Assembly (NCBI GenBank): GCA_963760245.1 | Contig: CAVXCH010000004.1 | Location: 20,241-84,240, forward strand | Source of the DNA: an uncultured Chloroflexia bacterium | GTDB taxonomy: Bacteria; Chloroflexota; Anaerolineae; Anaerolineales; Villigracilaceae | DNA: 64,000 nucleotides | Direction: 5' to 3' | Shown: piece after piece, positions 1 through 15,555 of the stretch | Numbering within the stretch: the stretch's first letter is position 1 | Layout: each line of letters starts with the position of its first letter | Program-made: the position numbers and the translations under genes | The notes under the pieces: model-generated | Told to the model about the DNA's origin: nothing | The model's database searches: none | The model's input: only the letters and a program-made list of their open reading frames with translations

Positions 1-390
1 GCGAATGAGGTAGCAACCAACAACTAACCCGGTACGCCCTATTCCACCGACGCAATGGAGATAAACCTTGCGACTTTCCGAGAGAGCCGCATCAATGGCA
101 TCCAATGCGGCTACCATCATTTGGGGGGAGGGTACACTAAAATCCGGAAAAGAAAAACGCAGATGCCGGACTTCCAGTTCAAAATAGGTGGCTTCATTTT
201 TCAGAATGGATGTATACGGGGGGCGCTCATTTTCGATTGTCAGGTCTATGAAAGTGTCGAAACCGGCATTAAGGAAGGCGGAGAGACGCTCGTGGGTTAC
301 AGCCTTATTGTTACTACGGACCGGATATTCTCCCGCCAGAAACTGTCCCGGGAACACCCAGTAGGATTCGGGGATGGGCTTATCGATCAT
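1..390 (-). CDS. Dual-specificity / tyrosine protein phosphatase (partial, C-terminus beyond window edge)
   Basis: Not in the ORF track because it runs off the edge. My minus-strand translation from the ATG at 390 reads MIDKPIPESYWVFPGQFLAGEYP...SRKVYLHCVGGIGRTGLVVGCYLIR with no stops. It contains the Cys-X5-Arg(S/T) PTP signature HCVGGIGRTG. The ATG overlaps the upstream stop (ATGA at 387-390). Confidence 0.75.
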   Translation of the reverse strand, partial: MIDKPIPESYWVFPGQFLAGEYPVRSNNKAVTHERLSAFLNAGFDTFIDLTIENERPPYTSILKNEATYFELEVRHLRFSFPDFSVPSPQMMVAALDAIDAALSESRKVYLHCVGGIGRTGLVVGCYLIR

Positions 391-1415
391 GGGAAGAGGA
401 AATATACCTTCAGCATACCGGAAGATTTCCGGCTGGTAAGCACAATCCCATAATCCCCAGCCGGGAGACGGTATTGTTTTTGCCAGTCGCTGGCAACAAT
501 GGAAACATCTTCTGAGTGCAAGAGCAGGAGCGAAGGCCCCTGTGACGGTGCAAGAGCCACATCAAAGTAATGAGTATCGATGCCAGTAACGCGGATGAAG
601 ATAGCCACATCACCGGCTCTGGGCAGATTGAACATGGCGATAGTCTCAGCTTCAACGTTGCGGGTAGAGAGGTCCACCGTGTCAGCAAGGTCGAACCCTT
701 TAGGCGGCTTGAGAAGCCCGTCCCCCAGGGTGGAGGTCAAAAGCATCCCGGCCCCGATCAAAGCCGCCGCAATCACTCCCCCCGCCAACACCCAGCGCCA
801 GGCCTGTACAGATTTTCCTCCGCCTGTAAACAAACCATGCCAATCCAAGCGCATACCCGCGTAACGCCGGACAAACAAGAACCAGCCACCGGCAAAGAAG
901 GCCAAGGCTACAAAAGCCACACTCAACGGTGGCAGCCCGCTGTGGGCAAGGAACCTGGTCACATCGTCGCCAGTGGGAGCTTCCTTTATCATGTAGAAGA
1001 AGGGAATGACGACCCAGGCCAACAGGGAGCAAAGGGTACCGGCTGAGGCTATGAATTTGGTCCAAAGAACCAGCGGGCTGCTGTTTTTCGGTAAAGTGAG
1101 GATCAGCATCAGCCAAACCAGGACTGGCAGCCCCACGCCGCTGATGTTGATCACAGCATCCTGGAAGCGAGTAAATTTTCCGCCAATATAGACATGCGCG
1201 CCAAGGTTGAAAAAGTTTAAATTAACTTCCCCAATCCGACCCCCGAAAGCCAGACCAGCCAGGGCGTGCCCGCCCTCATGCAGAACGGTATATGCCAGTG
1301 CGATCCCCAAGGCAATCAGCAGCGTAAAACTGGCAAATTTGAGTCGATCGGTAGTGAATGTCATTGGATCTTCGGGCGGGTGCACAATTTTGATTAGGCC
1401 AGTAGATGCATTCAA
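387..1415 (-). CDS. Membrane zinc metalloprotease-like protein (M50B-like HExxH) with a C-terminal soluble beta-rich domain
   Basis: 342-aa ORF with an HExxH motif inside a TM helix (TVLHEGGHALAG), 5-6 predicted TM segments and a non-hydrophobic tail of about 110 aa. Stop overlaps the phosphatase start. Confidence 0.55.
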   Translation of the reverse strand: MNASTGLIKIVHPPEDPMTFTTDRLKFASFTLLIALGIALAYTVLHEGGHALAGLAFGGRIGEVNLNFFNLGAHVYIGGKFTRFQDAVINISGVGLPVLVWLMLILTLPKNSSPLVLWTKFIASAGTLCSLLAWVVIPFFYMIKEAPTGDDVTRFLAHSGLPPLSVAFVALAFFAGGWFLFVRRYAGMRLDWHGLFTGGGKSVQAWRWVLAGGVIAAALIGAGMLLTSTLGDGLLKPPKGFDLADTVDLSTRNVEAETIAMFNLPRAGDVAIFIRVTGIDTHYFDVALAPSQGPSLLLLHSEDVSIVASDWQKQYRLPAGDYGIVLTSRKSSGMLKVYFLFP

Positions 1416-1463
1416 ATCTGCTCACGATTCCTGCCCTCATTAAATATCAATATTCCGCAAAGG

Positions 1464-1910
1464 CTATTTGCCCATCATCTCCTGGACTATTTCCACTGCG
1501 TCTCCAACAAAATGAGGGCAGAGTGTTTTGAACACCTCTTTATCGACTGCCTGTTTCCGACCTGCATCGGTGCTGATATCAAAACCCAACAGTTCCCGGC
1601 AAAGGATGGAGCCATGCACGGACTCAAAACGACGTAAGAACTCCTGCCCAAGCCGGTAGGCATCCTCCTTTCCTGACGGAGTATCCGCTCCCATTGCCAG
1701 GCCGAGGGCCATCAACCCCCCCGACACTGCTCCGCATACCTGACCGCGGCGTGCAACACCGCCGCCAAAAGGTGAGGCTATTTTAAGCATGCTATTCTCA
1801 TCCATACCCAATTGAGACGCAAAGGTCGCTAATACCGACTGGGCACAATTGAAATTCCGTTTGAATAAAGAAACGGCAATTTCAGAAGGATCGAATTTAG
1901 AAGGTTCCAT
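1464..1910 (-). CDS. C_GCAxxG_C_C family redox-type protein
   Basis: Motifs NCAQSVL and QVCGAVSGG..ALG are typical of the family. I chose the ATG at 1910 (MEPSKFDP...) because the longer ORF overlaps the prs 3' end. Confidence 0.65.
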   Translation of the reverse strand: MEPSKFDPSEIAVSLFKRNFNCAQSVLATFASQLGMDENSMLKIASPFGGGVARRGQVCGAVSGGLMALGLAMGADTPSGKEDAYRLGQEFLRRFESVHGSILCRELLGFDISTDAGRKQAVDKEVFKTLCPHFVGDAVEIVQEMMGK

Positions 1911-1914
1911 TTTT

Positions 1915-2913
1915 TTATCCGGATTTCTCCGGGTTTTCGTCCCCATAAATAAACAAATCCCCAATAGACTCCCGCAAATAGTTGCGACGAATGGCATCCC
2001 CGAAAACAGGGGCGATCGAGAGCACGTGCAGTTTAGGATGACGCTTTTCAGGGGGAATATAGACGGTATCGGTGGTGACGATCTCTGTAATCTGAGGAAC
2101 GGAGGTCAGTTTTTGCAACCCACCGTGTACGAAGACCCCATGGGTGGAAGCCACCCAGATTTCCTGGACGCCCTCCCCGACCAGGATGCGGCTTAGCTCC
2201 AGCACCGACCCACCGGTGGCAATCTCATCATCATAAATAATGGCCTTCCGAAATCCCTGCACCGGGCGCCCAATCAAACCGCTGATTACAACTTTTGTGT
2301 CGGATAGGCGCTCCTTGTTCCCGGCTGCGACCGGCAGGTTCAGCCCCCTGGCAAACAAAGCGGCCGGCCCGGCTGAGCCCATATCGGGTGCAACCACCAC
2401 GGTCTCAGCCAGGTCGTGCGACTGAAAATAATTCCGGAAAACCGGTCGGCTGGTCAAGGGATCGGTGGGCACGCTGAAAAAGCCATGGGCTTGCGGCGAG
2501 TGCAATACCATTGTCATTACGTGGGTGGCACCGGCAGTCCTCAGCAGGTCGGCAACCAAGCGGGCCGTTATGGAAATGCGCGGCGCATCCTTTTTGTCTG
2601 AACGGGCAAAGGAAAAATACGGGATGATGGCATGAACTTCTTTAGCCGAGGCAGAGCGGGCGATATCCAGCATCATCAGCAACTCCACCAGGTTGTCGTT
2701 GACTGGGGGTGCAAGTGTTTGGACGATGAAAACGATGCGCGAGCGAACACTGGCACCGAGCTGGATATACAGGTTGTCATTGCTGAACCTGCTGACCAAT
2801 GTCTTTTCGAGCGGAAGGTTCAGATAGGCAGCAATATCGGCAGCCAGATGCGGGTGTGAACTGCCGCTGAAAATGCGAATTTCGTCCGGGTCAAGTGTGG
2901 TCCGATTGGTCAA
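1915..2913 (-). CDS. prs: Ribose-phosphate pyrophosphokinase
   Basis: 332 aa. N-terminal IFSGSSHPHLAADIA..L, PRPP-binding loop IIYDDEIATGGS. TTG start with GAGGAA 8 nt upstream. Confidence 0.9.
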   Translation of the reverse strand: MTNRTTLDPDEIRIFSGSSHPHLAADIAAYLNLPLEKTLVSRFSNDNLYIQLGASVRSRIVFIVQTLAPPVNDNLVELLMMLDIARSASAKEVHAIIPYFSFARSDKKDAPRISITARLVADLLRTAGATHVMTMVLHSPQAHGFFSVPTDPLTSRPVFRNYFQSHDLAETVVVAPDMGSAGPAALFARGLNLPVAAGNKERLSDTKVVISGLIGRPVQGFRKAIIYDDEIATGGSVLELSRILVGEGVQEIWVASTHGVFVHGGLQKLTSVPQITEIVTTDTVYIPPEKRHPKLHVLSIAPVFGDAIRRNYLRESIGDLFIYGDENPEKSG

Positions 2914-3056
2914 TGGATAAATTCCTCATGCGATGCGGTTGAAAGTGTGCAATATTTTAAAACTTAGAGTTTTTACAGCCCTTACCGAAGCAAGCCAAGA
3001 GCGGACTGGTTCTTTGAACACGTACTGTGCGGATTCCGGGAGTCAATGCAACCTCT

Positions 3057-3085
3057 ATAAAAAGGGGCGGAACATATTCCGCCCC
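3057..3085 (-). terminator. Rho-independent terminator ending the radical-SAM gene block
   Basis: 9-bp GC-rich stem (plus strand GGGGCGGAA 3064-3072 / TTCCGCCCC 3077-3085, loop CATA). On the minus strand it is followed by TTTTTAT. It lies 16 nt after the stop at 3101. Confidence 0.75.
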
Positions 3086-3100
3086 CAGTGGGAAATCGAG

Positions 3101-4495
3101 CTAATGATAAATTTTCTCCCAAGGATCCCTCAGGAAATTCCCCAGGATCTTATCAGCTTCGCCCTGGGTGGGAAGCACATCGCCATCCGGTTCGACATAC
3201 AACCAGGCTTTGCCCGCGCCGGAGGGTACTTCGTCCTCGATGGTCTCGTGCGCCACAGGGTTCTCAGCGGAATAGGGAACGGGCAGGTCCCAGCGCAGGG
3301 TGAGACCGAGGCTGGCGGCTTTATTGTGCAAAACATGGAGGGCTTCGTGAAGAGAAGCCTCGGAAGCGCCGAGCGAGAGACTCTTGACCTCCAGTTTCGC
3401 CAGTTTTTCCAGAATTTCCCCGGCTTTGTTCACATTCTGCGGGGTAACCGTCAAGTGGACGGTGGTGTATAAATCTTCGGGCATGACCGTTTCCAACCCC
3501 TTCCAGGAGTCTGTGTTCTCAGGATCAAGAATAAAAAGTAAATGATCGAGACCGGTTTGCAGGAGGGTGTTCAGGTATTCTTTATCAGCCAGTTTCAACC
3601 CGTCGGAGAGCAAGCCGGCAACCTGCCCAACCTTCTCGGCGTGGGCAATCAGTGCCGGCAGGTCTTCGCGCAGGGTGGGCTCACCTCCGGTGAAAGTGAT
3701 GTGGGGGATGCCAACCGCCCAGGCCTTATCCATAATGGTTTCCCATTCCTGGGTAGTGAGTTCACGGTCTACGCGCTTGGTGGGAGCAAGCGAGGCGTCT
3801 GAACCAGCGGGCAGTCGATAGGTGAGCGCACAATCCAGACGCAAGGGCGCAGTCAAGTCGTGGGAATGAGGTGCGATGCGTTCAAAGTCGAGGAAGGTGG
3901 TCGGGTCCAGATCGGGGGTATGGATGAGTGTCTGGACGCGGTCACGGAAATCGGTGTAATCCATCAGCGCTTCCGCCTGGCTAATGCGGTAACGCTTGGA
4001 GATATGCCTGGCAGTTTCATCAGGCGAAGTGCCTTTTATCATGTGATAGGCAAATTCTGAGGCTGTGGCGTTCAGATGCAAAACCGTGGCGGCGTTAACG
4101 ATGAAGATGCCGGAACCGTCCTTCAGGAGGCGCAGATGCAAGCGATACGGAGGTTCATCCGGACCGGACTGGAAGGTGTGGGTTTCGGCGGGCAAAGGCT
4201 GATGGCGACCAGGTTTTTCAGCAAGGATCCAGAGGAGGATGAATCCCACCAGCAAAAGAAGCGCCTGGATGAAAATGCTGTATTTATACAGGAACCCACG
4301 GTGAATGAAAAAATAAAAGTAAATGGCAACCAGGAGGAAGACGATCCCGATAATTCGTACGATTACCCCTTTTGCATTATAGTTGCCTACTTTTAGTCTG
4401 CCTGCGATAAGGAGGAAAAGGCCCAGGAGGGGCATAATTACAAGAAAAACATACCGGGAGAGCAGATCCAAAGTGTTCAGCACTGTTTGGGACAT
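3101..4495 (-). CDS. Membrane-anchored radical-SAM/SPASM-like pseudoenzyme with RRE (PqqD-like) domain; Fe-S cysteines lost
   Basis: 464 aa with strong RBS AAGGAGG. Three N-terminal TM helices, then a PqqD-like segment (YRLHLRLLKDGSGIFIVNAATVLHLNATASEF..). The rSAM core keeps FTGGEPTL, but the CX3CX2C position reads YRLPAGSDASLA. The SPASM-equivalent region (AWLYVEPDGDVLPTQGEADKILGNF) has no Cys. Clear paralogue of 5197..6617. Confidence 0.8.
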   Translation of the reverse strand: MSQTVLNTLDLLSRYVFLVIMPLLGLFLLIAGRLKVGNYNAKGVIVRIIGIVFLLVAIYFYFFIHRGFLYKYSIFIQALLLLVGFILLWILAEKPGRHQPLPAETHTFQSGPDEPPYRLHLRLLKDGSGIFIVNAATVLHLNATASEFAYHMIKGTSPDETARHISKRYRISQAEALMDYTDFRDRVQTLIHTPDLDPTTFLDFERIAPHSHDLTAPLRLDCALTYRLPAGSDASLAPTKRVDRELTTQEWETIMDKAWAVGIPHITFTGGEPTLREDLPALIAHAEKVGQVAGLLSDGLKLADKEYLNTLLQTGLDHLLFILDPENTDSWKGLETVMPEDLYTTVHLTVTPQNVNKAGEILEKLAKLEVKSLSLGASEASLHEALHVLHNKAASLGLTLRWDLPVPYSAENPVAHETIEDEVPSGAGKAWLYVEPDGDVLPTQGEADKILGNFLRDPWEKIYH

Positions 4496-4510
4496 CGCAG
4501 CCTCCTTAAT

Positions 4511-4855
4511 TCATTCACGAATGAAGTGCGGTATTTCAAAAGGAATTTCAAAAGAAAACTCAATATAGCCGGCGTAGCGGCCGTCCTTGAACCAGGGGGA
4601 TTGATAAATGAATTTCTTGATACCATTCTTTTCGATGGTATAAGCATTAGCCTTTTGCTCATCCATCAGGCGTTCCAGTTTGCCGCGAGCGGGGTCGGGG
4701 TGGCAGTCGAGCATGTTCTTGCCAATCAAGGCGAGCCCGCCATCCTTAGCCATGGATTTGGCGGCCTTGTCGTTCATTTCGAGGATAATGCCGTCCGGGT
4801 CACTCACGGTGATTGCGGCAGGGAATTCCTTGATCCAGGCGTTTTCTTTGCTCAT
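4511..4855 (-). CDS. Small PAS-like protein (PAS_10-like, conserved DCHPDP motif), paralogue A
   Basis: 114 aa, RBS AAGGAG. Pattern ..ITVSDPDGIILEMNDKAA..LIGKNMLDCHPDPA..YTIEKNG..QSPW fits a single PAS fold. About 45% identical by eye to the next gene. Confidence 0.7.
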   Translation of the reverse strand: MSKENAWIKEFPAAITVSDPDGIILEMNDKAAKSMAKDGGLALIGKNMLDCHPDPARGKLERLMDEQKANAYTIEKNGIKKFIYQSPWFKDGRYAGYIEFSFEIPFEIPHFIRE

Positions 4856-4858
4856 GTT

Positions 4859-5200
4859 CTACTCCTTTTTGAAATGCGGAACATTTTCCGGAACAATAAA
4901 CGATATTTCCACGTACCCGGAATACAGGCCTTCCAGGTACCAGGGCGATTGGAAAAAGAAGCGTTTCTCGCCGTTCTCTGTGTTGAAATAGCAGTTGGTG
5001 GATTGGTCGTCCAACATACCCCCCAACTTGGTAAAGGCCGGGTCAGGATGGCAGTCGAGCACATTTGCGCCAAGGAGACCTTTTCCTCCGTCACCAGCGA
5101 AGAGCGCTTCGGCGTGGTCGTTCAATTCGAGGATGATCCCGCTGGAATCACAGACCATGATCTCGGCCGGAACCCCTTTCACCCAAAGTCCGTTGCTCAT
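4859..5200 (-). CDS. Small PAS-like protein, paralogue B
   Basis: Start chosen at MSNGLWVKG (ATG 5200), which forms an ATGA overlap with the upstream rSAM stop (5197-5200). It shares LDCHPDPA, QSPW and PHF motifs with paralogue A. Confidence 0.7.
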   Translation of the reverse strand: MSNGLWVKGVPAEIMVCDSSGIILELNDHAEALFAGDGGKGLLGANVLDCHPDPAFTKLGGMLDDQSTNCYFNTENGEKRFFFQSPWYLEGLYSGYVEISFIVPENVPHFKKE

Positions 5201-6617
5201 GCGACGCTCCCCTGCGCCACGTTTTTTTCGAATTGCAACGGGCAGCCGCCACCGCACTCGGCAAGCACAGCACAGCCGTTGCATTTTGCCGGCAGGGACT
5301 GGCGTTCGCGCAGCCTGACAGCCAGGTCGTGGTTCCAGATGGAATCCCAGTCATCAGCCAACAGGTTGCCGAGTTGATGATAATAAGACTGACAGGGCAG
5401 CACCCCACCATCGGGTTCGATGCACATGTTATAGAGGGCAGCTGTGCAACCCTTTACGCCCAGGTCCAGCGCCATCGGGTCGAAATCACAATACTGGGTG
5501 GGCGTATACCAGATAAGACGCTGGCCGCGGGCGAAGGTCTTTTGACGAGCCACTTCCAGAAGCGGGGACAAATCAGACTCTGCCAGCCCCGTCCCCACCA
5601 CGGAGCCTCGGCCCGAGTGGATCAGTGCGTTAAGTCCCACCGTGGGGACGCCAGTATCAGCCAGGAAATCCAGGGTGGCCGGGATGGTGTGGGCATTCGT
5701 GCGCAGCATGGTGGTATTGGTCATCACATAAAGTGGACTGGCGAGAGCGTTCTTCAACCCTTTGATCGTCTGCGGGAAAGCGCCCCTGGTGCGTACCATG
5801 GCATCATGGACCTCAGCATCGTTCGACTCAACCGTGATCTGAACGTGATCCAGCCCTGCAGCAACCAGCTTCTCAACATAACGCGGGTCCGAAAGGCGCC
5901 GGGCATTGGTGTTCAGCCCGGTGATCTGACCATTCTTCTCGGCGTGGGCCACGAGATCAGGCAGGTCATCGCGCAGGGTGGGCTCGCCGCCGGTGAAAAT
6001 AATGTGCGGAATGCCCAGTTCCCAGGCCTTGTCGAGGACGCGTTGCCAGCCTCCGGTGGAGAGTTCAGCTTTCGCATTTGAAGCTTCGGCCCGAGTAAAT
6101 TTCCCCCCTGCTCTAATGCCGTGGGGGAGGAATGTTGGACGTTATAACAGTGGGCGCAGTCGTTATTGCAGCGATACGTAAGCGCCAGGTCGAGACGGTA
6201 GGGGGCAGTAGGGCGGGCTGAGAATGGCATGACCGTTTCGAGCCCAAGCTCGTGGATCGGACAGGCACCGTCGGGACGGACGAGTTCTTCGAGCTGGCTG
6301 CGGACGGCTGCCACGTCCGCGCGCGCCTGGGCAGCATTTACGTGATATTTCCGCCGGATCAGGCGTACGGCTTCCCGTTCGGAGATGTCCTCCAGGGAAA
6401 AGTACGCCATCAAGGCGGCAGTGGGGTTAAGGTGCAGGATGCGATTGGCATTGACGATCAAAGTACCGTGACCATCAGGGTCCAGACGAAGGTGGATACG
6501 ACTTTTTTCATCCTTATCGACGCGATTATAGTGATACAACCCGGATTGAGGCTCCCCTACGGGGGCCTTTTTTCGGCTGAGGTCTTTTGACTGAACAACC
6601 TTTTCAACATCCGACAC
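5197..6617 (-). pseudogene. RRE-radical SAM/SPASM peptide/protein maturase; reading frame broken once as assembled (possible sequencing indel)
   Basis: ORF 5913..6617 carries the PqqD-like domain and YRCNNDCAHCYN (CX3CX2C), then goes out of frame. ORF 5197..5952, extended upstream, reads ELSTGGWQRVLDKAWELGIPHIIFTGGEPTL...; its C-terminus has CX2CX5CX3C (CNGCAVLAECGGGC). The two frames overlap over 6062-6140, which contains a C6 run at 6103-6108. GTG start without an obvious SD. Confidence 0.85.
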
Positions 6618-6650
6618 CTATAAATAAGAATGGAATCTTCCGATCAAGAT

Positions 6651-8346
6651 CTACCGTCCGCCACCGGCGCAGGCGCAGGCACAACCGGCACAGGCACAGG
6701 CACAGGCGCAGAATGACCGCCGCCACCCGAGAAACCACCGGTGTGCCCGCTTTTTACGACCGGGACCGGGTTGGTGCGGTTGGTGACGCCGGAAGTGAAT
6801 GACTTTACGTCACCGAGGACCTTGCTGGAGAAGCCCTGGACGCCGGTGACAACCGAGGCGGCAAATGCCGAACCCGGCAGGCTGGCTGAAGACCGTCCTC
6901 CGGAAGACGGCATGGAGACGGATGAGCCTGCGCCGGTCGAGACCGGATCGGTAACCTGGGTCATAGCGACCCCACCACATCGGGATGAAGATCGGCCCGG
7001 TAAAGACGTCGGCGGGTGCGCTCGTCGTAATTCTTGTCGAGCATGGTCCATTCGAGGGATTCGTCGTACATCTGGCTCTTGACCTCGGGCGTACCGGCCG
7101 CTTCGATCTGCTGCCAGGCGCGTTCCATGATGCTCTGGTAGTAGGCGATGGTTTCCTTGCGGCTGAAGCCTTTCATCTTGTCGGAAACACTGTTGACCAG
7201 CTTGACGGTCATCTCCTGCAGCCCCTTGCGGCGGGCGACCAGGTCGTCGACGGCAAACGCCGCCAGGAAATCCTTTTCGTAATCCTGCAGCCCATCGGGC
7301 AGAGGAGATGCCACCTGGAGTTTGAGCGGGTCGCGGGTGACAACCGTGGCGGCGTTCTTCTTGACCACGCCAAACAGGATCATGGTCATGACCTTGTCGA
7401 GCGGCTGTTCCATCAGGATGCCCGCTTCGACCGCGGTCAGGCCGCGCTTGATGCCGTGTCCTTCGATCTGGATCTTGGGCGGCAGGTACGCCAGTTTGCG
7501 TTTGTTTCCATTGATCGCGGACAAGATCGGCGCGCCGACGAACAGCAGGATAAAAAAGCCAAAACAGCAGACGCCGCTCAGATTACTCATGATGCCGTTG
7601 ATAAATCCACCGAGGTCCAAACCCAAGGCTGAGGGTGTCGCCCCGATAGCACCCGCCGGGACATAGGAATTCGGGAAGGACATGCCAAAGATATATTCGG
7701 TCGAGCCATCGGCGTTCGGGCAAGACCAGGTAAACCTCACCCTGCCCTGTCCATCCAGGTCCGCCTGGGGATTGGCATCGCAAGGCCAGCCTCCCGTTGC
7801 CGGATAATAAATGGATTCGGCAGGCTGCACGCCCGGAGGCAGATGGAAAACGACTGTCAGGGTCTCGCTGCCATGTGCGGTTGAGAAGTAGGCGGGGGCG
7901 AATTCACCGCTGGCATAGGTGGTGGTCTTTCCGGAATCGGTGCTGGGGTATAGTACGCCGGTGATGCTGCCAACAGCTACATGGACGCTTCCGGTCTGCC
8001 CCGGCTGAATGGCATCCGATCCCATGACTACTGAAAATCCGGAACCATTACCCTGATAATCCGATTGGGAGACCGTAAGGCTGTGTCCATTGGCGTCGGC
8101 CGATGCGGTGTTCATGTCGAAATTCCCATTGGGCATGCCCACATCCACATAGTCGATCACATGACCGCCGGAGTCATTGGCGAAGGTGAAAACGTAATCG
8201 AGCGCCATGGTCCCGTCGCTATTCCAGTAAACGTTGACGACTTCCTTCGTCAAATTAAAGGAATAAGACTGGGCAGCCACGCTGGAGACCATCGTGAAGA
8301 CCATAAATATCAGCACGATAGAAGCAAGCAGGCGGAGTTTTTTCAT
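6651..8346 (-). pseudogene. DUF2207-like membrane protein with Gly/Ser-rich C-terminal region; about 3 frame breaks in the last 400 nt as assembled
   Basis: Start at MKKLRLLASIV.. (signal peptide, RBS AGGAGGAAGGG). Beta-rich ectodomain, TM helix, then GLTAVEAGILMEQPLDKV.. In the tail, frame A ends at 6961; frame B reads FTGPIFIPMWWGRYDPGY with better GC3; frame C (ORF 6644..7051) reads SSGGRSSASLPGSAFAASVVTGVQGFS...GGFSGGGGHS; a further frame gives the Cys-Ala tail. Alternatively, ORF 6644..6964 (MTQVT.., ATGA overlap with the 6961 stop) is a separate 106-aa gene. Confidence 0.6.
6660..6711 (-). repeat. Coding hexanucleotide microsatellite (TGY-GCC)n
   Basis: Minus strand reads tgcgcctgtgcctgtgcctgtgccggttgtgcctgcgcctgcgccggtggcggacggtag. 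This gives APVPVPVPVVPAPAPVADGRS in the ORF-track frame, or CACACACAGCACACAGGGR-stop (stop at 6651-6653) in the +1 frame. Confidence 0.9.
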
Positions 8347-8395
8347 CCCTTCCTCCTTTACGAAATTTATTGCGGGATTCCAAACAATTGCACAG

Positions 8396-8791
8396 CTACC
8401 ACTTGGGTTCTTCGGTGAGTTGATAAACCGTATTGCAGTACGGACAGGTGACGACAGGCGCACCGTTCACCATTTTGATGTTGTCGGTAGTCAACGCGCC
8501 GCCGCAGGAACGGCACTTCATTTGCTCAATCTTGGTGTCGCCCGGCAGGTCCACCTTGTAAGTAACGTTTTGAGCGGTGTCCGTCTTCGTCTTGCGAGCC
8601 GCCAAAACAATCATGATAATTCCAGCCACCAGGGCGACTGCTCCAAGCAGCATCCCAACGGTGCCGATCCCGGACACGCCCTGGGCACCGCCGGCTGCGC
8701 CCAACAAGATAAAGCCCCCGACACAAATTCCCGAGGCAGCCAACAAGAGCAGGATGACTGCACCGATATACAACCAGGTTCCAGGTTTCAT
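8396..8791 (-). CDS. Membrane protein with C-terminal zinc ribbon
   Basis: Start at MKPGTW (GGAGG 6 nt upstream). Two TM helices, then CRSCGG...CPYCN (CxxC x2). Confidence 0.6.
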   Translation of the reverse strand: MKPGTWLYIGAVILLLLAASGICVGGFILLGAAGGAQGVSGIGTVGMLLGAVALVAGIIMIVLAARKTKTDTAQNVTYKVDLPGDTKIEQMKCRSCGGALTTDNIKMVNGAPVVTCPYCNTVYQLTEEPKW

Positions 8792-8910
8792 GAAATTACC
8801 TCCGTGGTACTCCATGGGATATACGTTTAAACCAGGTCAAGTGTAGCACGTCTTAACCCGTGAGACAATTGACGAATTTCCCATTTTGTATAAATGTCCC
8901 GCCGGAGTTG

Positions 8911-9282
8911 TCAACCCGAACCGGAAGGACGTTTCCCATATTCGATCAACCCGTGGACGGTGTCAATGGGGAGAACGACCAGGATGCCGTTCCCGGGCTC
9001 ATCCAAGTCGCCGACAATTTCTTCGGTCACCTTGAGGATACGCCCCACCAAATCCTCCTGCACGACCGTAAAAATTGTACGGCTCAAATCCTCGCTTTGA
9101 ACAAAAAAATCACTCAAGGAAGGCATCAAGGGCAGGTCATCGCGCAGAGCCATGGACTGGTTGATGCGACCCATGCCGGTGCTGGACAAGACCGTAGCAC
9201 CGCTTACACCGGCTTCCTTCCAAGCCTTCAGGAGATCCAACAATCGCATGGGATCATTCAGGACGAAAAGAATCATCTTCAT
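8911..9282 (-). CDS. PII-like small regulatory protein
   Basis: 123 aa from MKMILFVLNDP.. with LLKAWKEAGVSGATVLSSTGMGR, which resembles the PII/GlnB-like fold signature. It starts 1 nt after the antiporter stop. Confidence 0.5.
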   Translation of the reverse strand: MKMILFVLNDPMRLLDLLKAWKEAGVSGATVLSSTGMGRINQSMALRDDLPLMPSLSDFFVQSEDLSRTIFTVVQEDLVGRILKVTEEIVGDLDEPGNGILVVLPIDTVHGLIEYGKRPSGSG

Positions 9283-9283
9283 A

Positions 9284-10507
9284 TCAGCTCTCCTCTCCCC
9301 TTTTCGCCGGAACCATTGCCTTTGGTTTGAGACGTTCAAAAGCAAAACGCAGCAGCGGCGGCGTGACGAGGGTGGTAAGCAGCACTGCGGCGACAATGGC
9401 AGAGTATGCCCCGCTTTCTAACAAGCCAGCCTTGCTGCCTGCCGCCGCAACGATCAGGGTGACCTCCCCGCGCGCCACCATCCCGGCACCCAACTGGAAT
9501 GATTCGTGACCGGGTAACCCGCCCAACCTTGCGCCTGCTGCGGCACCAAATATTTTTCCGGCAATTGCTGCCAATGCGACTACAAGAATCAGCCAGACAG
9601 CGTTTATATCCAGGGTGTGCAAATCGATTGAAAGGCCAACATTGATAAAGAAAATGGGAACAAAAAGCCCATATGCCAGAGAGGTAATCCCCTGTTCGAT
9701 TTGACCTTTTTCGGGAGTGCGGGCAAACATCAACCCAGCCAGGAAAGCACCGATCAAGGCAGCCATCTGGCCCACCAGCTCTGAGGCCAGGCCGTAAAGG
9801 AGCATGATCACGATGGCAAAAGCAAGCACGCCCTGGCTGATGGACAAGTGCCCCACCCAGCGTACCAGGGACGGAAGAACCCACAGCCCAAAGGCCGTGG
9901 CGGCGACAAGAAAAAGAGCCATGCGACCTGCAAGCAAAACCAGACCCCAGAAACCAGCAGCGCCGGTGGTGATTGCCAGGAAGACCGAGAAGGCCAGGAT
10001 GGAGAGGATATCGTCCACCACGGCAGCGCCGAGCAAGCTCAACCCCACCCGGCTGCGCAGCACGCTCATTTCCATCAACGTGCGCGCCGATATGCTTACG
10101 CTGGTGGCACCCAACGCCAGCCCCAGCAGGAGAGCAGCAGAGCCGGTGAGACCAAAAAGCCGTCCCCCACCCCAGCCCAGCCCGATGGACAGGAGCAGCC
10201 CTCCAACGCTTGCCAGGAGGGATACTCTGCGGTGGCTGGCCAGCTCGCCCAGGTGAAGTTCGAGGCCCGCGATGAACATCAACATCAAAACCCCCAGTTC
10301 GCTGAGGTCAGAAATGGTGACCCCCAGTGTAGTGCTGCTAATGAAAGGCAGACCAAGGATGTTAATCAGAGACGGGCCAAGCACCACCCCGATGAGAAGT
10401 TCCCCCAATACCGAGGGCTGCCCCAGGCGGGTGCTGATGTATCCAGCCGCTTTGGCAGCCAACAAGATGACGACCAGTTCAAAGGCGAGTTGCAGAAAGG
10501 GGGTCAT
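9284..10507 (-). CDS. Cation:proton antiporter (CPA2 / Kef-type Na+/H+ exchanger family)
   Basis: 407 aa with about 12 TM helices. N-terminal LAAKAAGYISTRLGQPSVLGELLIGVVLGPS is typical of Na_H_Exchanger proteins. No fused KTN/RCK domain. Confidence 0.8.
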   Translation of the reverse strand: MTPFLQLAFELVVILLAAKAAGYISTRLGQPSVLGELLIGVVLGPSLINILGLPFISSTTLGVTISDLSELGVLMLMFIAGLELHLGELASHRRVSLLASVGGLLLSIGLGWGGGRLFGLTGSAALLLGLALGATSVSISARTLMEMSVLRSRVGLSLLGAAVVDDILSILAFSVFLAITTGAAGFWGLVLLAGRMALFLVAATAFGLWVLPSLVRWVGHLSISQGVLAFAIVIMLLYGLASELVGQMAALIGAFLAGLMFARTPEKGQIEQGITSLAYGLFVPIFFINVGLSIDLHTLDINAVWLILVVALAAIAGKIFGAAAGARLGGLPGHESFQLGAGMVARGEVTLIVAAAGSKAGLLESGAYSAIVAAVLLTTLVTPPLLRFAFERLKPKAMVPAKRGEES

Positions 10508-10655
10508 GGCATGGAAAGTTTATCATATCCTTTCATTTGATAAAGAAGATTGCTGGCAAATCCCGATCAGGGAGGCATGGACTCCCAACCATTCCTGGAA
10601 GATGGCTTGTACTTTGCCGGACAAACCTTGGTAGAATCAAGAAGAGGAGATCAAG

Positions 10656-11297
10656 ATGAACCACCTGCCGATCGACACAAGCAAAGACCCTAAATCAATC
10701 CGCCTGTTCAAGTCGGACTTCCTGGAATTTTTTACACACATCAGCCCGGTGACGATCATCATCTTATGGGTACCGGTGACAGCGTACCTGCTTGTGGCCG
10801 CCATCCTGAGCGCTAAACCCGGGGCTTTCCCATGGTTCATCCCGGCTGCCTTCGCCGCCGGCCTGTTCGAATGGACACTGGCGGAGTACACCCTGCACCG
10901 CTTCCTCTTCCATTACCCGGCCAAGACTCCGAAAGCCGAGCGGATCTTCTTCCTGTTCCACGGCGTGCACCATGCCCAGCCCCAGGACAAGACCCGCCTG
11001 GTGATGCCGTTCCCGGTGAGCATTCCCATGTCGCTGCTTTTCTACGGGTTGTTCACATTGGTTTTGGGAGTGCTTTTGAAAGCGAACCAATGGATCAACC
11101 CGATGGCAGCCGGTTTCCTGGCGGGTTATCTCATCTACGACCTGATGCATTATGCCCAGCATCATTTCCCGATGCGCAGCGGGTATGCTAAATATATCAA
11201 ACGCTACCACATGGCGCACCACTACAAAAGCCCAAACACGCGCTACGGGGTCAGTTCCCCGCTATGGGACTGGGTGTTCGGGACAGCCGGGGAATAA
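10656..11297 (+). CDS. Fatty acid hydroxylase / sterol desaturase family membrane protein
   Basis: Histidine boxes HRFLFH, HGVHH, HYAQHH and HMAHHY. RBS GAGGAG. Confidence 0.8.
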   Translation: MNHLPIDTSKDPKSIRLFKSDFLEFFTHISPVTIIILWVPVTAYLLVAAILSAKPGAFPWFIPAAFAAGLFEWTLAEYTLHRFLFHYPAKTPKAERIFFLFHGVHHAQPQDKTRLVMPFPVSIPMSLLFYGLFTLVLGVLLKANQWINPMAAGFLAGYLIYDLMHYAQHHFPMRSGYAKYIKRYHMAHHYKSPNTRYGVSSPLWDWVFGTAGE

Positions 11298-11382
11298 GAA
11301 ATAAGAGAAGAAAGCGGAACCTGTGTGATCAAAGGGGGCGGATGGGTTTCGGGTTCGAAGAAACGGAAGGTCGTGTGCACTG

Positions 11383-12732
11383 TTATTTGCAATGCACTTG
11401 TCGAACCTGGCAAGACCGATGGAAGGGAACGAGCATTTTCCGATTCCCTTTGAGAATTAGAAAGGGACGGTTTTTTTTTCTGTAAGTCTGCGGAGGTTTG
11501 TCATCGCCTTCCAAATCAGACCCGAGATTTCCCAAATCAATAGGCGTAAACGAGTAGTCCCCTGAATCAATGTGTGGGGGAGACTGTAATACCCTTTTCC
11601 TGAGTGTATTACCAGGTTCGTTATCGTTTTCCTGATCTGATCCCAGATGTGCCAAATCGATGGGAGTGAACGAGAATATTTCCTGCTCCGTAAACGCTTG
11701 AGCCTGGGCGGCTTTTTTCCTTGCCGACAAGATAAAAGTTGGGGACTGCCGCCTGTGTTCCTGCGCTTTTTCACGCCGCTCCTTACGCAGCGCCTGATAC
11801 CCTTGCTGGAGGAACAGCAGGACAGTCCGCATTTTCCAGGATTTGTCCAAACCGTGAGGTAAAACTACCTTGTTTTCCGAGATCGCAACGCACCCCTGTT
11901 CCACCAGGACTTGGAGGCTAACCTTTCCACGGGAAAGGAGATCCTGATAAAGGGCGGAGTAGAGCAAGTCGAGACGACCGCTGAGTAACAAGCGCCGATA
12001 GTAGCGACGACAAGTGAGCATGGGAGGATACCACCCCGGCAGATCCTGCCAGGGGGCGTGATGAGCCAGTTTCCAGAAAATGGCATCGAGCAATTTGCGA
12101 GGGTCAGCAGGCGGACGGCCGCGTTTACCGGTGCGCTCAGCAGGGGGAACCAGCGGCTCAAGAACAGCCCATTGACGGGGGGTCAGGAAGGGGAATGGGG
12201 AGCGCGAGACAGAAGGACAGAGCGCTTCTTCGAGAGCAAGTGAATTAAAGTCACTTTTATTCATATAATCCCGGAACGAATAGGCTTCGCCACTGATCCC
12301 CTTTTCCAGCAAGGAATTGTGGATAAGAGCCCCGGCATGCTTTGAGACAACTTGCAGGTCGGACCCGATCAGGAAGCGCTTGACAAAATCCACCTTCATC
12401 CGCCCAACGATACCAACCATCCTCACCACAGTATTAAACCAGGCAATTATCGAGCGGTTGTCTTCGACACTCCTTAAATTCTGGTAAGCCCGGCCAATTT
12501 CTTTCATAAGGTCCAGGATCAATCGTTGGGAAACAGACGGGGAACTACAGTCGAGCAAGCGCGGATAAGCCGGCAGAGTGGACGAGAGCTCCGTGAGGGG
12601 GGTGCGATTTTTGACGGCGTAAAGCCCATGGTTAAGGGCATTATGATTTAACGGCTGCCCTCCGCGCCTGCGGAGGAGGACGGGCGGGAGACGGGGAAGC
12701 GTTGGAATAGAATAAGGAACTGAATTCAACAT
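11383..12732 (-). CDS. Hypothetical protein with an internal IS5-type transposase N-terminal HTH (DUF4096-like) and no DDE domain
   Basis: The central segment LTPRQWAVLEPLVPPAERTGKRGRPPADPRKLLDAIFWKLAHHAPWQDLPGWYPPMLTCRRYYRR matches the N-terminal module of IS5/IS4-family transposases. No catalytic domain follows and no terminal inverted repeats were seen. Confidence 0.6.
   Translation of the reverse strand: MLNSVPYSIPTLPRLPPVLLRRRGGQPLNHNALNHGLYAVKNRTPLTELSSTLPAYPRLLDCSSPSVSQRLILDLMKEIGRAYQNLRSVEDNRSIIAWFNTVVRMVGIVGRMKVDFVKRFLIGSDLQVVSKHAGALIHNSLLEKGISGEAYSFRDYMNKSDFNSLALEEALCPSVSRSPFPFLTPRQWAVLEPLVPPAERTGKRGRPPADPRKLLDAIFWKLAHHAPWQDLPGWYPPMLTCRRYYRRLLLSGRLDLLYSALYQDLLSRGKVSLQVLVEQGCVAISENKVVLPHGLDKSWKMRTVLLFLQQGYQALRKERREKAQEHRRQSPTFILSARKKAAQAQAFTEQEIFSFTPIDLAHLGSDQENDNEPGNTLRKRVLQSPPHIDSGDYSFTPIDLGNLGSDLEGDDKPPQTYRKKNRPFLILKGNRKMLVPFHRSCQVRQVHCK
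11513..11682 (-). repeat. Two imperfect ~45-nt direct repeats inside the CDS (encode FSFTPIDLxxLGSDxExD twice)
   Basis: Peptide ..IFSFTPIDLAHLGSDQENDNEP.. and ..DYSFTPIDLGNLGSDLEGDDKP.. The DNA copies lie at about 11515-11560 and 11634-11679. A T9 run (A9 in the coding sense) at 11471-11479 lies just downstream of them. Confidence 0.8.
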
Positions 12733-12876
12733 TGGGACGCTCCAGTCATTTAATGTATATAGAAGACAGGGCTAATAACGCCTATTATAGCACATCCGTT
12801 CTAGTTTGGAAATATGAAAACCGGTTTCCTCCCGTACAATGCGGATGTCCCCGGTACAAAACAAGCTTCATTAATA

Positions 12877-12916
12877 AGACTACGGACATCCTGAGATATC
12901 CGTAGTCTGGTTTTTT
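12877..12916. terminator. Intrinsic terminator hairpin, probably bidirectional
   Basis: Perfect 10-bp stem AGACTACGGA (12877-86) / TCCGTAGTCT (12899-908). It is followed by GGTTTTTT on the plus strand and by TTATTAAT on the minus strand. It lies 47 nt downstream of the GntR gene stop. Confidence 0.65.
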
Positions 12917-12963
12917 ATTGTGGGTTAGATTCTTGATTTACAGAAGCAGGGGAGGTTTGTCGA

Positions 12964-13707
12964 TTAAGTCCGCTGCAGGCGGGCGACGAACTGGTAGCGA
13001 TCGGCGTGGAAGACGACCTTGCTGTACTCCACTGTCAGCCCCCCCCGATCCGTGGAGATGCGCTTCAGGCGCATCACCGGGGCACCTTTGTTGATGCCGA
13101 GCAGTCCCGCTTCCTGCCCGGTAGCCGAACCGGCAGTGACCAGGTCGAGCGCCTCCTGCGGGTGGGCATTATAGATTTTTTCCAGGGTGGCATACACCGA
13201 AGTATTATTCAAATCCAACGTAGCCAGCGCCGGAAAGCGGTCGAACGAGAGATACATTTCCTCAATGGCGAAGGGAAGCTGCTTGGCAAGGCGCAGGTTA
13301 CATAAATGGATGACCCGGGCAGCCTTGAAAAGTTTAAGTTCATTGGCTATCTCCTCGCCAGCTGGGATCACTTCTTGCAACAGGATCGTGTTCGAAGGCT
13401 CAAGGGCATCAGCGGACAGGTTTTCGGTCATGCTGAACAGCGGGCCGGTAACCGTGTAACTGCGCTTGATGGGCGGTGCCACAAAAGTCCCCTTGGCCCG
13501 CTTGCGGATCAGCAGTCCTTCGGTGACGAGCTCGCGAAAGGCGCGATGCACCACCAGCCGACTGATGCCCAACTGCTCGCTCAGGCTGAACTCACTCGGC
13601 AGCATTTCGCCGGGTTTCAATTCACCGCTGGCGATCAAGGCTTTCACCGCTTCCTTGACCTGGTGGTAATACGGGACAGCAGATTGTTTATTGAATATAA
13701 TGTTCAA
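12964..13707 (-). CDS. GntR-family transcriptional regulator, HutC subfamily (HTH + UTRA)
   Basis: KPGEMLPSEFSLSEQLGISRLVVHRAFRELVTEGLLIRKRAKGTFV, then a UTRA-like C-terminal half. I prefer the TTG start at 13707 (GAGGAG 6 nt upstream), because the longer ORF overlaps the AOR 3' end. Confidence 0.8.
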   Translation of the reverse strand: MNIIFNKQSAVPYYHQVKEAVKALIASGELKPGEMLPSEFSLSEQLGISRLVVHRAFRELVTEGLLIRKRAKGTFVAPPIKRSYTVTGPLFSMTENLSADALEPSNTILLQEVIPAGEEIANELKLFKAARVIHLCNLRLAKQLPFAIEEMYLSFDRFPALATLDLNNTSVYATLEKIYNAHPQEALDLVTAGSATGQEAGLLGINKGAPVMRLKRISTDRGGLTVEYSKVVFHADRYQFVARLQRT

Positions 13708-13751: not shown

Positions 13752-15555
13752 TTACAGATGCAGGTCTTCCCTGGGATGGCCGGTTTCGGGGTCCCAACCG
13801 AACTCGGCATAAGCACCAGCCAACAGGGTAGGCATATCCGGCACATAACCAGCTGCGCCGCCCTCCTTGAGCGGTTTGAGCAGCAGGTCAGGCAGCCGGT
13901 CGTTGGCTCTGGTCAGCCCGAGCTTGAAGTTCAACAGGCGTTTGATGTTGACGATGCGCTTGCCCAACGTCATCAAGTCTTCTGCTTCCAGGTCCCAGCC
14001 GGTGGCCGCGTTTATTGCTGCCAGGAGCGGTTGAACGCCCGGATTTTCGAACTGGCACAGGATGAGGGAATTATACAGGTTGCGCCAGGCCTGCAAACGT
14101 GCTGCTGTGCGGCCCTTTTCGATCGTGTTCTCATGCCGGTCGCCTGGCTCCAGACCGACTTCTCCAAGATTGCTTTGACCCAGGTCGAGGGTGAACATAT
14201 CGCCCTGCATGTGGCAGGCACCGCGGGGAGAAAGGGCGTAGGTGACAGCCATGCCCAGGTAAGCGCGTGGATCGTGCATGGGCACTTCCAATCGGTTGAC
14301 GGTGGCTGAAAGCTCCGGCACACCTGCACGCTCAGCCAGGGCGGCGTTGCCTTCGGCCAGCACAGCGCCAAAACCCTCCCGGCGGGCAGTCAGCTCGATC
14401 AGGCGGAAGACCATCTCGGGATCGCCATAACGAATTTCCAGACCACCTGTATCCGCCGAGGTGAGCAGGCCGCGGTCGAACAGTTCGCAGGCCAGACCGA
14501 TGGTCACGCCCATGCTGATAATGTCCATGCCGTAGAGATTGCACAGGTGCCCGGCGTGGATCACCGCTTCCAGGTCGAAGATCATCAACAGGGAACCCAA
14601 CGCCCCTACCGTCTCGTACTCGGGTCCATCCACCTTGGGATCTTTATAGGTAGGGGATTGTGTCTCCCGCCCGCAGGCGATCACGCACTTGTGGCAGGCT
14701 GTATTGCGCGTGAGAAACTTTTCAGCCAGGTCAACCCCGGAGAGATCGTCAGCCGGCGCGTATTCGCCCAACTGGAAGTAACGGATGGGCAGGTCGCCCA
14801 ACATATGGCTCAGGTTAACATAGCCAGCAGTGCCGTAGGCGCGGTAGGATTGGGCGGGAAAGTCATCTTTATAGAACGCCAGGATCTGGTTGGTGATGGC
14901 TTTGTATTCTTCAGGGGCATAGAGTGGAACCTTGCCTGTGCCACGCACCGCGATTGCCTTCAGGTTCTTGGAGCCCATCACTGCGCCCAGGCCGGTGCGG
15001 GCGGCAAAACGGCCGTGGTCGTTGGCGATGCCGGCCAGCTTGACCATGTTTTCGCCTGCCAGCCCGATGCAGGCCACGCGCACTTTTGGGTCACCCAGGG
15101 CCTCGCGAAGGCGGGTCTGTGTGGCGTAGATGTCGTTGCCCCACAGGTCGCCGGCTGCTATGCAGCGCAGCCTGCCCTTCGATAATCGACAACCAGACCG
15201 GCTGCTCAGCCTTGCCGGTGATCAATACTCCGTCATAACCGGCGTAGCGCAGCTCGGGGCCAAAGAAACCGCCGCTGTTGGCTTCACCCCAGATGCCCGT
15301 TAGCGGTGAGCGGGCGCACACGCTGTAACGCCCGGCTGAGGTCATCGAGGTGCCCACCAGGGGACCGGTCAGGAAGAACAGCGGGTTCTCCGGGCCAAGC
15401 GGATCTGTGCGGTCGTCTAGCAGGTCGTAAAGATAGCGCGCTGCCAGCCCACTGCCACCCACATAGGTGCGGGCGTAGTCTTCGTTGAGCGCTTCGTCCC
15501 ACAGCCGGCCGTGGCTGAGGTCGACGCGCAGGATCTTGCCCAGGTATCCGTTCAT
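13752..15555 (-). pseudogene. Aldehyde:ferredoxin oxidoreductase (tungstopterin AOR family); one frame break as assembled
   Basis: N-terminal ORF (15091..15573) reads MNGYLGKILRVDLSHG..GGSGLAARYLYD..SPLTGIWGE. C-terminal ORF (13752..15083) contains the 4Fe-4S ligand motif CHKCVIACGR. In the second frame the sequence continues AAGDLWGNDIYATQTRLREALGDPKVRVACIG. The break is near 15153-15165. ATGA overlap with the SCP2 gene. Confidence 0.85.

Follow-up and report, generated by a model that had tools for sequence, protein, structure and literature searches.

Radical S-adenosylmethionine (SAM) enzymes that combine a SPASM domain with a recognition element (RRE) for peptides that ribosomes make and that are modified after translation (RiPPs) are the chief route to new peptide chemistry, and to our knowledge nearly all of them act on short free peptides. 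The window analyzed here, 64,000 nucleotides (nt) of an uncultured Chloroflexia bacterium (assembly GCA_963760245.1, contig CAVXCH010000004.1), encodes on its minus strand what appears to be such an enzyme, which we call B. It is accompanied by a bitopic membrane protein that ends in a Cys-Ala tail (A), two small PAS-like proteins (C and D), a paralogue of B that has lost its cluster ligands (E) and a small membrane protein (H). What does B act on? A preliminary description of the locus had named two candidates, the PAS-like pair and the Cys-Ala tail. We find that the tail is invariant and strongly favoured, while the PAS pair lost ground because its presence is patchy. We propose that B acts on the tail of A in a RiPP-like maturation, a reading that, judged from comparative sequence analysis, we place at an even balance between right and wrong.

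The tail, CACACACAGCACACAGGGR, has 19 residues, among them seven alternating cysteines. Its sequence is exactly this in 61 of 69 A orthologs; of the others, five are shorter by one CA unit and three are longer by one. The identical tails, 61 in all, are encoded by 60 distinct DNA versions, with synonymous variation at each codon. Sixty codings of one peptide imply an extreme constraint at the level of the protein, and they rule out a constraint on the DNA. The tail is unaltered where the identity of A falls to 25-31 %, and it recurs in locus L086, where E is 36 % identical, and in locus L088, whose very divergent A has 639 amino acids (aa). Does it also exist as a stand-alone precursor? When the tail module alone served as the query, only fragments of A came back, that is, pieces broken by a contig end or a frame change, and the earlier statement that the system has no classical short precursor holds. 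We know of no description of a CACACACAGCACACAGGGR ending, and the literature searched contained nothing on the tail, on the pairing of A with B or on the family.

How is the tail presented? From its N terminus, A begins with a signal/anchor helix and a beta-sandwich ectodomain. Next come a transmembrane (TM) helix (residues ~259-277), then KRK, and a cytoplasmic region that is helical. The protein closes with a conserved motif, a variable linker rich in Gly and CACACACAGCACACAGGGR. The conserved motif, LPGxxFAxSVxxGVQxFSxKVxGDVxxFTSGVTNRTNPxP, was derived from conservation across 53 orthologs and from the C termini of 49; it resembles a leader and is retained in distant homologues. The divergent A of L088 has three predicted TM helices. 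This odd number, together with the KRK that follows the TM helix, indicates that the tail is probably in the cytoplasm, where a radical-SAM enzyme works. In most loci the tail is encoded 14-190 nt upstream of B. We propose that B acts on the tail because the C terminus of A has the layout of a RiPP precursor, lies upstream of an RRE-radical-SAM-SPASM gene and is predicted to be cytoplasmic. Among RiPPs, hypervariable cores give rise to diffusible natural products, while invariant cores belong to cofactor-type precursors such as PqqA and MftA; by analogy, CACACACAGCACACAGGGR resembles the latter.

In an AlphaFold2 (AF2) model the ectodomain of A, residues 30-225, has a predicted local distance difference test (pLDDT) score of ~55-88, and by fold it is best matched to Ost1/ribophorin I and to the N-domain of LTA4H/M1 aminopeptidases. 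A matches no Pfam or NCBIfam family and is a 'hypothetical protein' in all sources; none of 120 orthologs has a precomputed Pfam domain. The preliminary description had called A DUF2207-like. The layout is indeed similar, since proteins of the DUF2207/YgcG type have a signal peptide, a beta-rich ectodomain, one or more TM segments, a cytoplasmic region that starts PP...G...EAG and a Gly-rich C terminus, and one tail fragment carries the Joint Genome Institute (JGI) name YgcG. However, the DUF2207 model (PF09972) matched neither full-length A nor its ectodomain or cytoplasmic part taken alone, even at E <= 10, and searches of the separate domains against Pfam and NCBIfam at that level found no TPM match either. 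The resemblance is therefore architectural only.

Is B equipped to modify such a substrate? Its CX3CX2C motif, CNNDCAHC, lies at 6170-6147 and its complete SPASM motif, CX2CX5CX3C (CNGCAVLAECGGGC), at 5283-5242, both as first described; the upstream Cys residues are also there. Once its reading frame is repaired (see below), B, whose motif is intact in relatives, scores 86.9 bits against Radical_SAM (PF04055; cut-off, 29.5) and 37.8 bits against SPASM (PF13186; cut-off, 21.5). Its best NCBIfam scores are those for PqqE, NirJ2, AhbD and AhbC, all far under the cut-offs. The figures are 113.7 bits for PqqE (TIGR02109; cut-off, 381.35), 80.1 for MftC (TIGR03962; cut-off, 265), 95.9 for TIGR04347 (cut-off, 525), 75 for StsB (cut-off, 625) and 56 for SkfB (cut-off, 300). 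B falls below the cut-off of each specific family tested (PqqE, MftC, SkfB, StsB, ScmE/F, GeoRSP and others), and these searches place it in no characterised maturase family. The nearest solved structures are PqqE, BlsE, SkfB and CteB; over profiles and structures together, the closest are PqqE, MftC, SkfB and CteB. We conclude from these scores that B is, at the superfamily level, a putative maturase of the RRE-radical-SAM-SPASM type, with Radical_SAM and SPASM domains above threshold and a borderline RRE.

E is 34 % identical to B along an alignment of 396 residues (E = 7e-65) that runs from the RRE-like domain as far as the first SPASM hairpin. In place of CX3CX2C it has LDCALTYRLPAG, and it is truncated, stopping short of CX2CX5CX3C and lacking all SPASM/auxiliary-cluster cysteines. 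The FTGGEPTLR motif is retained. The preliminary description of E, a second copy of the RRE-radical-SAM-SPASM scaffold with three TM helices and no Fe-S cysteines, was accurate for the window. The helices, predicted at residues ~16-92, are confined to the clade of the window; outside it, members of the family are soluble and ~385 aa long. PF05402 is listed for several E orthologs. The AF2 model of E (mean pLDDT, 57; core, 70-90) is good enough to support the radical-SAM barrel and the TM helices but nothing more, and the best Foldseek matches of the modelled core are PqqE, SkfB and BlsE. Against NCBIfam, E reaches 68.1 bits for PqqE and 24.2 for MftC, both under the cut-offs, and 45 for TIGR04347 (cut-off, 525). 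Mean column identity among 12 orthologs is 77 %, with hundreds of invariant columns. To judge by its sequence, E is a catalytically dead copy of B that is nevertheless under strong purifying selection.

Do these genes belong together? Relatives of E occur in at least 570 GTDB species genomes; the best 80 of these are all Chloroflexota, mostly labelled Anaerolineales or Anaerolineae. We scanned one genome per GTDB species and counted the 60 loci that had at least 5.5 kb upstream of E. A and B were each present at 58 of these loci and H at 56; 45 had at least one PAS gene, 12 had two and 15 had none, C itself being present at 11-12 and D at 46. The order H-A-B-(PAS)-E was constant. Since this sample had been chosen via E, we took a second one via the tail, using a degenerate DNA pattern to search metagenomes, which gave at least 120 loci. 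Among the matches listed, A lay upstream in 96 of 98, a B- or E-type gene followed directly downstream in 91 of 94 and H was present in 58 of 60; E came after B in 27 of 35, and any PAS gene was found in 8 of 35. At the eight loci lacking E, the lone downstream gene was an active B with both Cys motifs. The co-occurrence is thus reciprocal, and the gene arrangement is far beyond chance.

Exceptions to the full arrangement were instructive. Pairs of A and E without B occur in genomes that have a full locus elsewhere (L044 with L017 and L057 with L019), which ties E to A. Distant lineages that have A and an active B without E tie B to A and point to B as the catalyst. In L088 a dead gene of B/E-like type comes after the very divergent A. 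These variants define a universal core of H, A with its tail and B, to which E is a frequent addition and the PAS proteins are clade-specific accessories. The preliminary description had looked to conserved co-occurrence of the radical-SAM enzyme, the PAS-like proteins and the dead paralogue. Co-occurrence is indeed conserved, but the core is H, A and B rather than that trio: PAS genes are missing from 15 of 60 loci in the first sample and E from 8 of 35 listed in the second, and the membrane anchor of E is limited to one clade. The patchy presence of the PAS proteins also marks them as accessories rather than as a core substrate.

Further layouts were seen. Tandem copies of A occur at L116, L163 and L186, and A-A-B-E arrangements exist; at L044, L057, L156 and L088, A is followed by a dead paralogue only.

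C and D are paralogues of 45-57 % identity (tblastn). D scores 25.6 bits against PAS_4 (gathering score, 23.1); C is below the PAS thresholds, with a weak PAS_9 match only, but is a clear paralogue, and the description of both as PAS-like proteins of ~113 aa stands. An invariant Cys-His-(Pro) motif in D (92 orthologs) is common to C and D. The sole PDB match of the PAS-like proteins, 2qkp, is weak (E = 0.35) and was not used to assign a function. This uncharacterised PAS domain has the same CHP motif, which hints at a ligand- or metal-binding PAS subtype.

How might B work on the tail? We envisage that the cytoplasmic C terminus of A corresponds to a RiPP precursor that is fused in cis, with a leader-like motif, a variable Gly-rich linker and a 19-residue core. 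The RRE of B would bind the leader-like motif, and B would modify the Cys-Ala core, most likely by forming radical thioether or other Cys/Ala-centred cross-links; our confidence in any particular chemistry is much lower than in action on the tail as such. The product would be a fixed element, cofactor-like, structural or redox-active, that stays on A rather than a diffusible natural product. E, which is without Fe-S ligands but has an RRE-like domain and a barrel, would most plausibly serve as a non-catalytic partner that presents the tail or recruits B, doing so from the membrane in the window's clade. H might be a further obligatory membrane partner, and C and D optional sensors or regulators. 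A bolder extension is that the radical-SAM enzyme and its dead paralogue build a protein-tethered prosthetic group in cis from the (Cys-Ala)n tail; a thioether ladder and a cluster-binding cage are examples of what might form. The system would then be an Anaerolineae-specific, membrane-anchored housekeeping counterpart of the biogenesis of pyrroloquinoline quinone (PQQ) and mycofactocin, and its RiPP-like chemistry, carried out on a full-length protein, would form a new class. We offer this extension only tentatively and think it somewhat unlikely to be right.

Several observations weigh against action of B on the tail. Seven cysteines in an invariant run might just as well bind a metal or an Fe-S cluster with no enzyme involved. 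AF2 gave a pLDDT below 50 for the cytoplasmic half of A and its tail, so that only the ectodomain is usable, and low confidence for the beta-strands of the RRE of E. B scores 22.7 bits against PqqD (PF05402), just below the cut-off of 23.4; of the PqqD/RRE-like domain described earlier, the resemblance stood and the family score was narrowly missed. B occurs without a nearby A at two loci (L049 and L080), and E is not beside B at the eight tail-first loci counted above. Perhaps, then, the tail is an unmodified metal-thiolate or Fe-S module, a metallothionein-like CxCxC, and B and E act elsewhere or B uses A as a dock or cluster donor? Seven alternating cysteines and strict invariance would suit a fixed coordination geometry, and H, a constant companion, is itself a CxxC...CxxC zinc-ribbon protein. 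However, the RRE-like domain of B is a signature of peptide or protein substrates, and the locus has no other conserved candidate peptide; for mere metal binding, the leader-like motif and the variable linker would serve no evident purpose; and the tail adjoins B in 91 of the 94 listed loci. We consider such a module unlikely. It is rather improbable, in our estimate, that B, in the manner of NirJ, AhbD or PqqE, is a small-molecule or cofactor enzyme and that A is its neighbour by synteny and not its substrate. The top NCBIfam scores, PqqE, NirJ2, AhbD and AhbC, would agree with this, though they are far below the cut-offs. There are no tetrapyrrole or PQQ genes at the locus, B and E alike have an RRE-like domain, and the adjacency outlasts both the divergence of A to 25 % identity and numerous rearrangements nearby, among them the insertion of an M28 peptidase, an IS200-like element or a 340-aa gene. 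That C and D are substrates of B appears highly improbable. They do sit between B and E, where an ATGA overlap and a gap of 3 nt link them, and their Cys-His motif is invariant, but they are folded PAS domains and not leader-core peptides, and they are absent from too many loci (15 of 60 in the E-first sample have none, and only 8 of the 35 listed tail-first loci have any).

A different doubt concerns whether the locus is functional in this genome. The preliminary description had treated A and B as continuous reading frames, reading through five indels that break them. A has extra bases at 7008 and 6948 and a missing base at 6710; its frame ends at 6961, and its C-terminal portion is scattered across two further frames. 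B has A6 for A7 at 6573 and G6 for G7 at 6108 and appears in the list of open reading frames (ORFs) as two pieces, 5913-6617 and 5197-5952. We aligned the window to L083 (GCA_049514675.1), which was reached via a member of the 90 % cluster containing the window's E protein; the two are 97.6 % identical over 14.3 kb. The five indels coincide exactly with the frame changes, and L083 has unbroken copies of both A (564 aa) and B (471 aa). B is also intact in short-read metagenome-assembled genomes (MAGs). The ratio of non-synonymous to synonymous change (pN/pS) between the window and L083 is 0.07 for A and 0.20 for B, and the 900 bp with all five indels contain 16 synonymous and 4 non-synonymous substitutions. 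H, C, D and E are unbroken. Many long-contig MAG assemblies of relatives ('MFD' MAGs) gave similarly split matches for A and B. Elsewhere in the window, an FGGY carbohydrate kinase occupies two ORFs (17470-19060, minus strand), with FGGY_N complete and FGGY_C starting from profile position 75, and an aldehyde:ferredoxin oxidoreductase ORF (13752-15185, minus strand) begins at AFOR_N profile position 151. Both genes look frameshifted too, which suggests that indel errors are general in this assembly. A 449-aa ORF (11383-12732, minus strand) is matched in L083 by two genes, one encoding 182 aa and the other a 313-aa DUF4096 protein. Relative to L083 this ORF shows an A9/A7 length difference in a homopolymer at 11478-11479 as well as one extra base at 12258, and it may be a transposase-related gene whose frame hinges on those indels.

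Because L083 is intact, most of the substitutions are synonymous and further window genes are split, assembly errors are the likeliest source of the five indels in A and B. Could they instead be real, the mark of a very recent inactivation in a decaying pseudogene cluster? Two facts speak for this and against our reading. The indels are significantly clustered, with 5 of 10 gap positions (one of them a 2-nt gap) in 0.9 of the 14.3 kb, and three of the five lie outside homopolymers. The excess of synonymous substitutions in that same segment, the low pN/pS of both genes, the four intact neighbours, the further frame-broken genes of the window and the alike split matches in the 'MFD' MAGs argue to the contrary, and we judge inactivation to be improbable. 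The window copy is in any case unusable as it is, because five frame-breaking indels sit in A and B.

Among known systems, which come closest to the proposed action of B on the tail of A? PqqA/PqqD/PqqE and MftA/MftB/MftC likewise combine a radical-SAM/SPASM enzyme with a PqqD-type RRE, the latter borderline in B, and in both the precursor has a C-terminal core that does not vary and is not hypervariable. By profile, by sequence and by fold, B and E match PqqE best. In contrast to those systems, the 'precursor' here would be the tail of a ~560-aa membrane protein and not a peptide of 20-30 aa, the RRE-like domain is fused to the enzyme, a dead paralogue is present and the other pqq and mft genes are absent. 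Sactipeptide and ranthipeptide synthases (AlbA, SkfB and CteB/SCIFF) and QhpD are alike in their cysteine-rich substrates and in their RRE, radical-SAM and SPASM architecture, and SkfB and CteB are among the PDB matches of B. QhpD acts on a protein subunit, QhpC; such enzymes can thus cross-link a subunit that remains in the cell. Unlike these thioether maturases, B has no family-level match (the StsB and SkfB scores being far below the cut-offs), the acceptor residues in the tail are limited to Ala or Gly and the putative substrate is membrane-tethered. The pseudo-SAM/SPASM family of Halobacteria, TIGR04347, which is among the better NCBIfam matches of E and B, offers a conserved radical-SAM fold without the cluster motif; E, however, is not a member by score, is without all SPASM cysteines and has an RRE-like domain and, in the window's clade, three TM helices. 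None of the six proteins, H and A to E, belongs to a curated specific family in the Pfam and NCBIfam scans. As the preliminary description had suspected, the combination is not a described system in these databases or in the literature searched. What would be new is RRE-dependent radical-SAM maturation with an invariant substrate tethered to a membrane protein, and with a dead paralogue.

The coordinates of the locus are given in Table 1.

Table 1. Features of the A-B-E locus, with positions counted from the first nucleotide of the window
Feature	Positions	Strand	Remarks
H	8396..8815	minus	start probably 8791, as in relative L083 (131 aa)
A, bitopic membrane protein	6651..8346	minus	564 aa once repaired; three indels in window
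Leader-like conserved motif of A	6758..6880	minus	conservation among A orthologs
Invariant tail CACACACAGCACACAGGGR + stop codon	6651..6709	minus	out of frame with remainder of A in window
B, soluble radical-SAM/SPASM enzyme	5197..6610	minus	471 aa once repaired; two indels in window
C, PAS-like protein 1	4859..5200	minus	113 aa; accessory
D, PAS-like protein 2	4511..4855	minus	114 aa; accessory
E, dead paralogue of B	3101..4495	minus	464 aa
Intrinsic-terminator-like hairpin	3063..3086	minus	10-bp stem, 7 GC pairs, then TTTTT; closes operon

The five minus-strand genes, their order and their overlaps or short gaps were as first described: A and B are 40 nt apart, B and C share an ATGA overlap, and C-D and D-E are separated by 3 and 15 nt. 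The hairpin after E, already noted in the preliminary description, was the best terminator-like site in a terminator scan. The unit is nonetheless not one of five genes, since H, 49 nt upstream of A and nearly always present in both samples, had been missed. H is a small membrane protein with two TM helices (TM scan) and a C-terminal CxxC...CxxC zinc ribbon; Pfam and NCBIfam scans gave only weak sub-cut-off matches. An Rfam scan of window positions 1-13000 found no riboswitch and no other RNA family. Upstream of H, on the same strand, lie a 123-aa P-II-like gene and a Na+/H+ exchanger (8911-10507). This pair is found upstream in just 21 loci, and we rejected an operon that reaches past H; the pair is conserved synteny for part of the clade and not core.

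Additional genes intervene in some relatives. In one subclade a Peptidase_M28 lipoprotein gene (~335 aa, with signal peptide and lipobox) lies between B and the PAS gene (L017:8499-9503 and L001:6639-7643). In another, a conserved protein of ~340 aa (ICYLLAFPD, GLKDAPYFQPVD) without a credible Pfam match is encoded directly upstream of E (L069:8949-9971, and likewise L043, L054, L056, L066, L067, L070, L071 and L081); it may be a further accessory component. In several genomes an IS200-like Y1 transposase gene of the type associated with repetitive extragenic palindromes (REP; ~175 aa) sits between A and B, both undisturbed (L019:6457-6981, L008:6557-7090, L052:5372-5899 and L081:7009-7539). 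An origin of the operon in a mobile or defence island was rejected on its class-wide distribution and on the synteny kept with phosphoribosyl pyrophosphate (PRPP) synthetase and other housekeeping genes, though no padloc search was made. The best explanation, on this comparison of genomes, is that the operon is vertically inherited and of a housekeeping type in Anaerolineae.

Within a single bacterial class the system is very common: it is known from at least 570 species genomes, and metagenomes add thousands of proteins. If B does act on the tail of A, the locus would offer a directly testable case of in-cis, protein-tethered maturation of the RiPP type, and a clear pseudo-enzyme partner within the radical-SAM superfamily, a dead paralogue that keeps its peptide-binding domain. 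Should the product be a new protein-derived cofactor, the system would be more than a variant of RRE-dependent radical-SAM maturation. A large family of Anaerolineae membrane proteins now labelled 'hypothetical' would also gain a first lead to its function.

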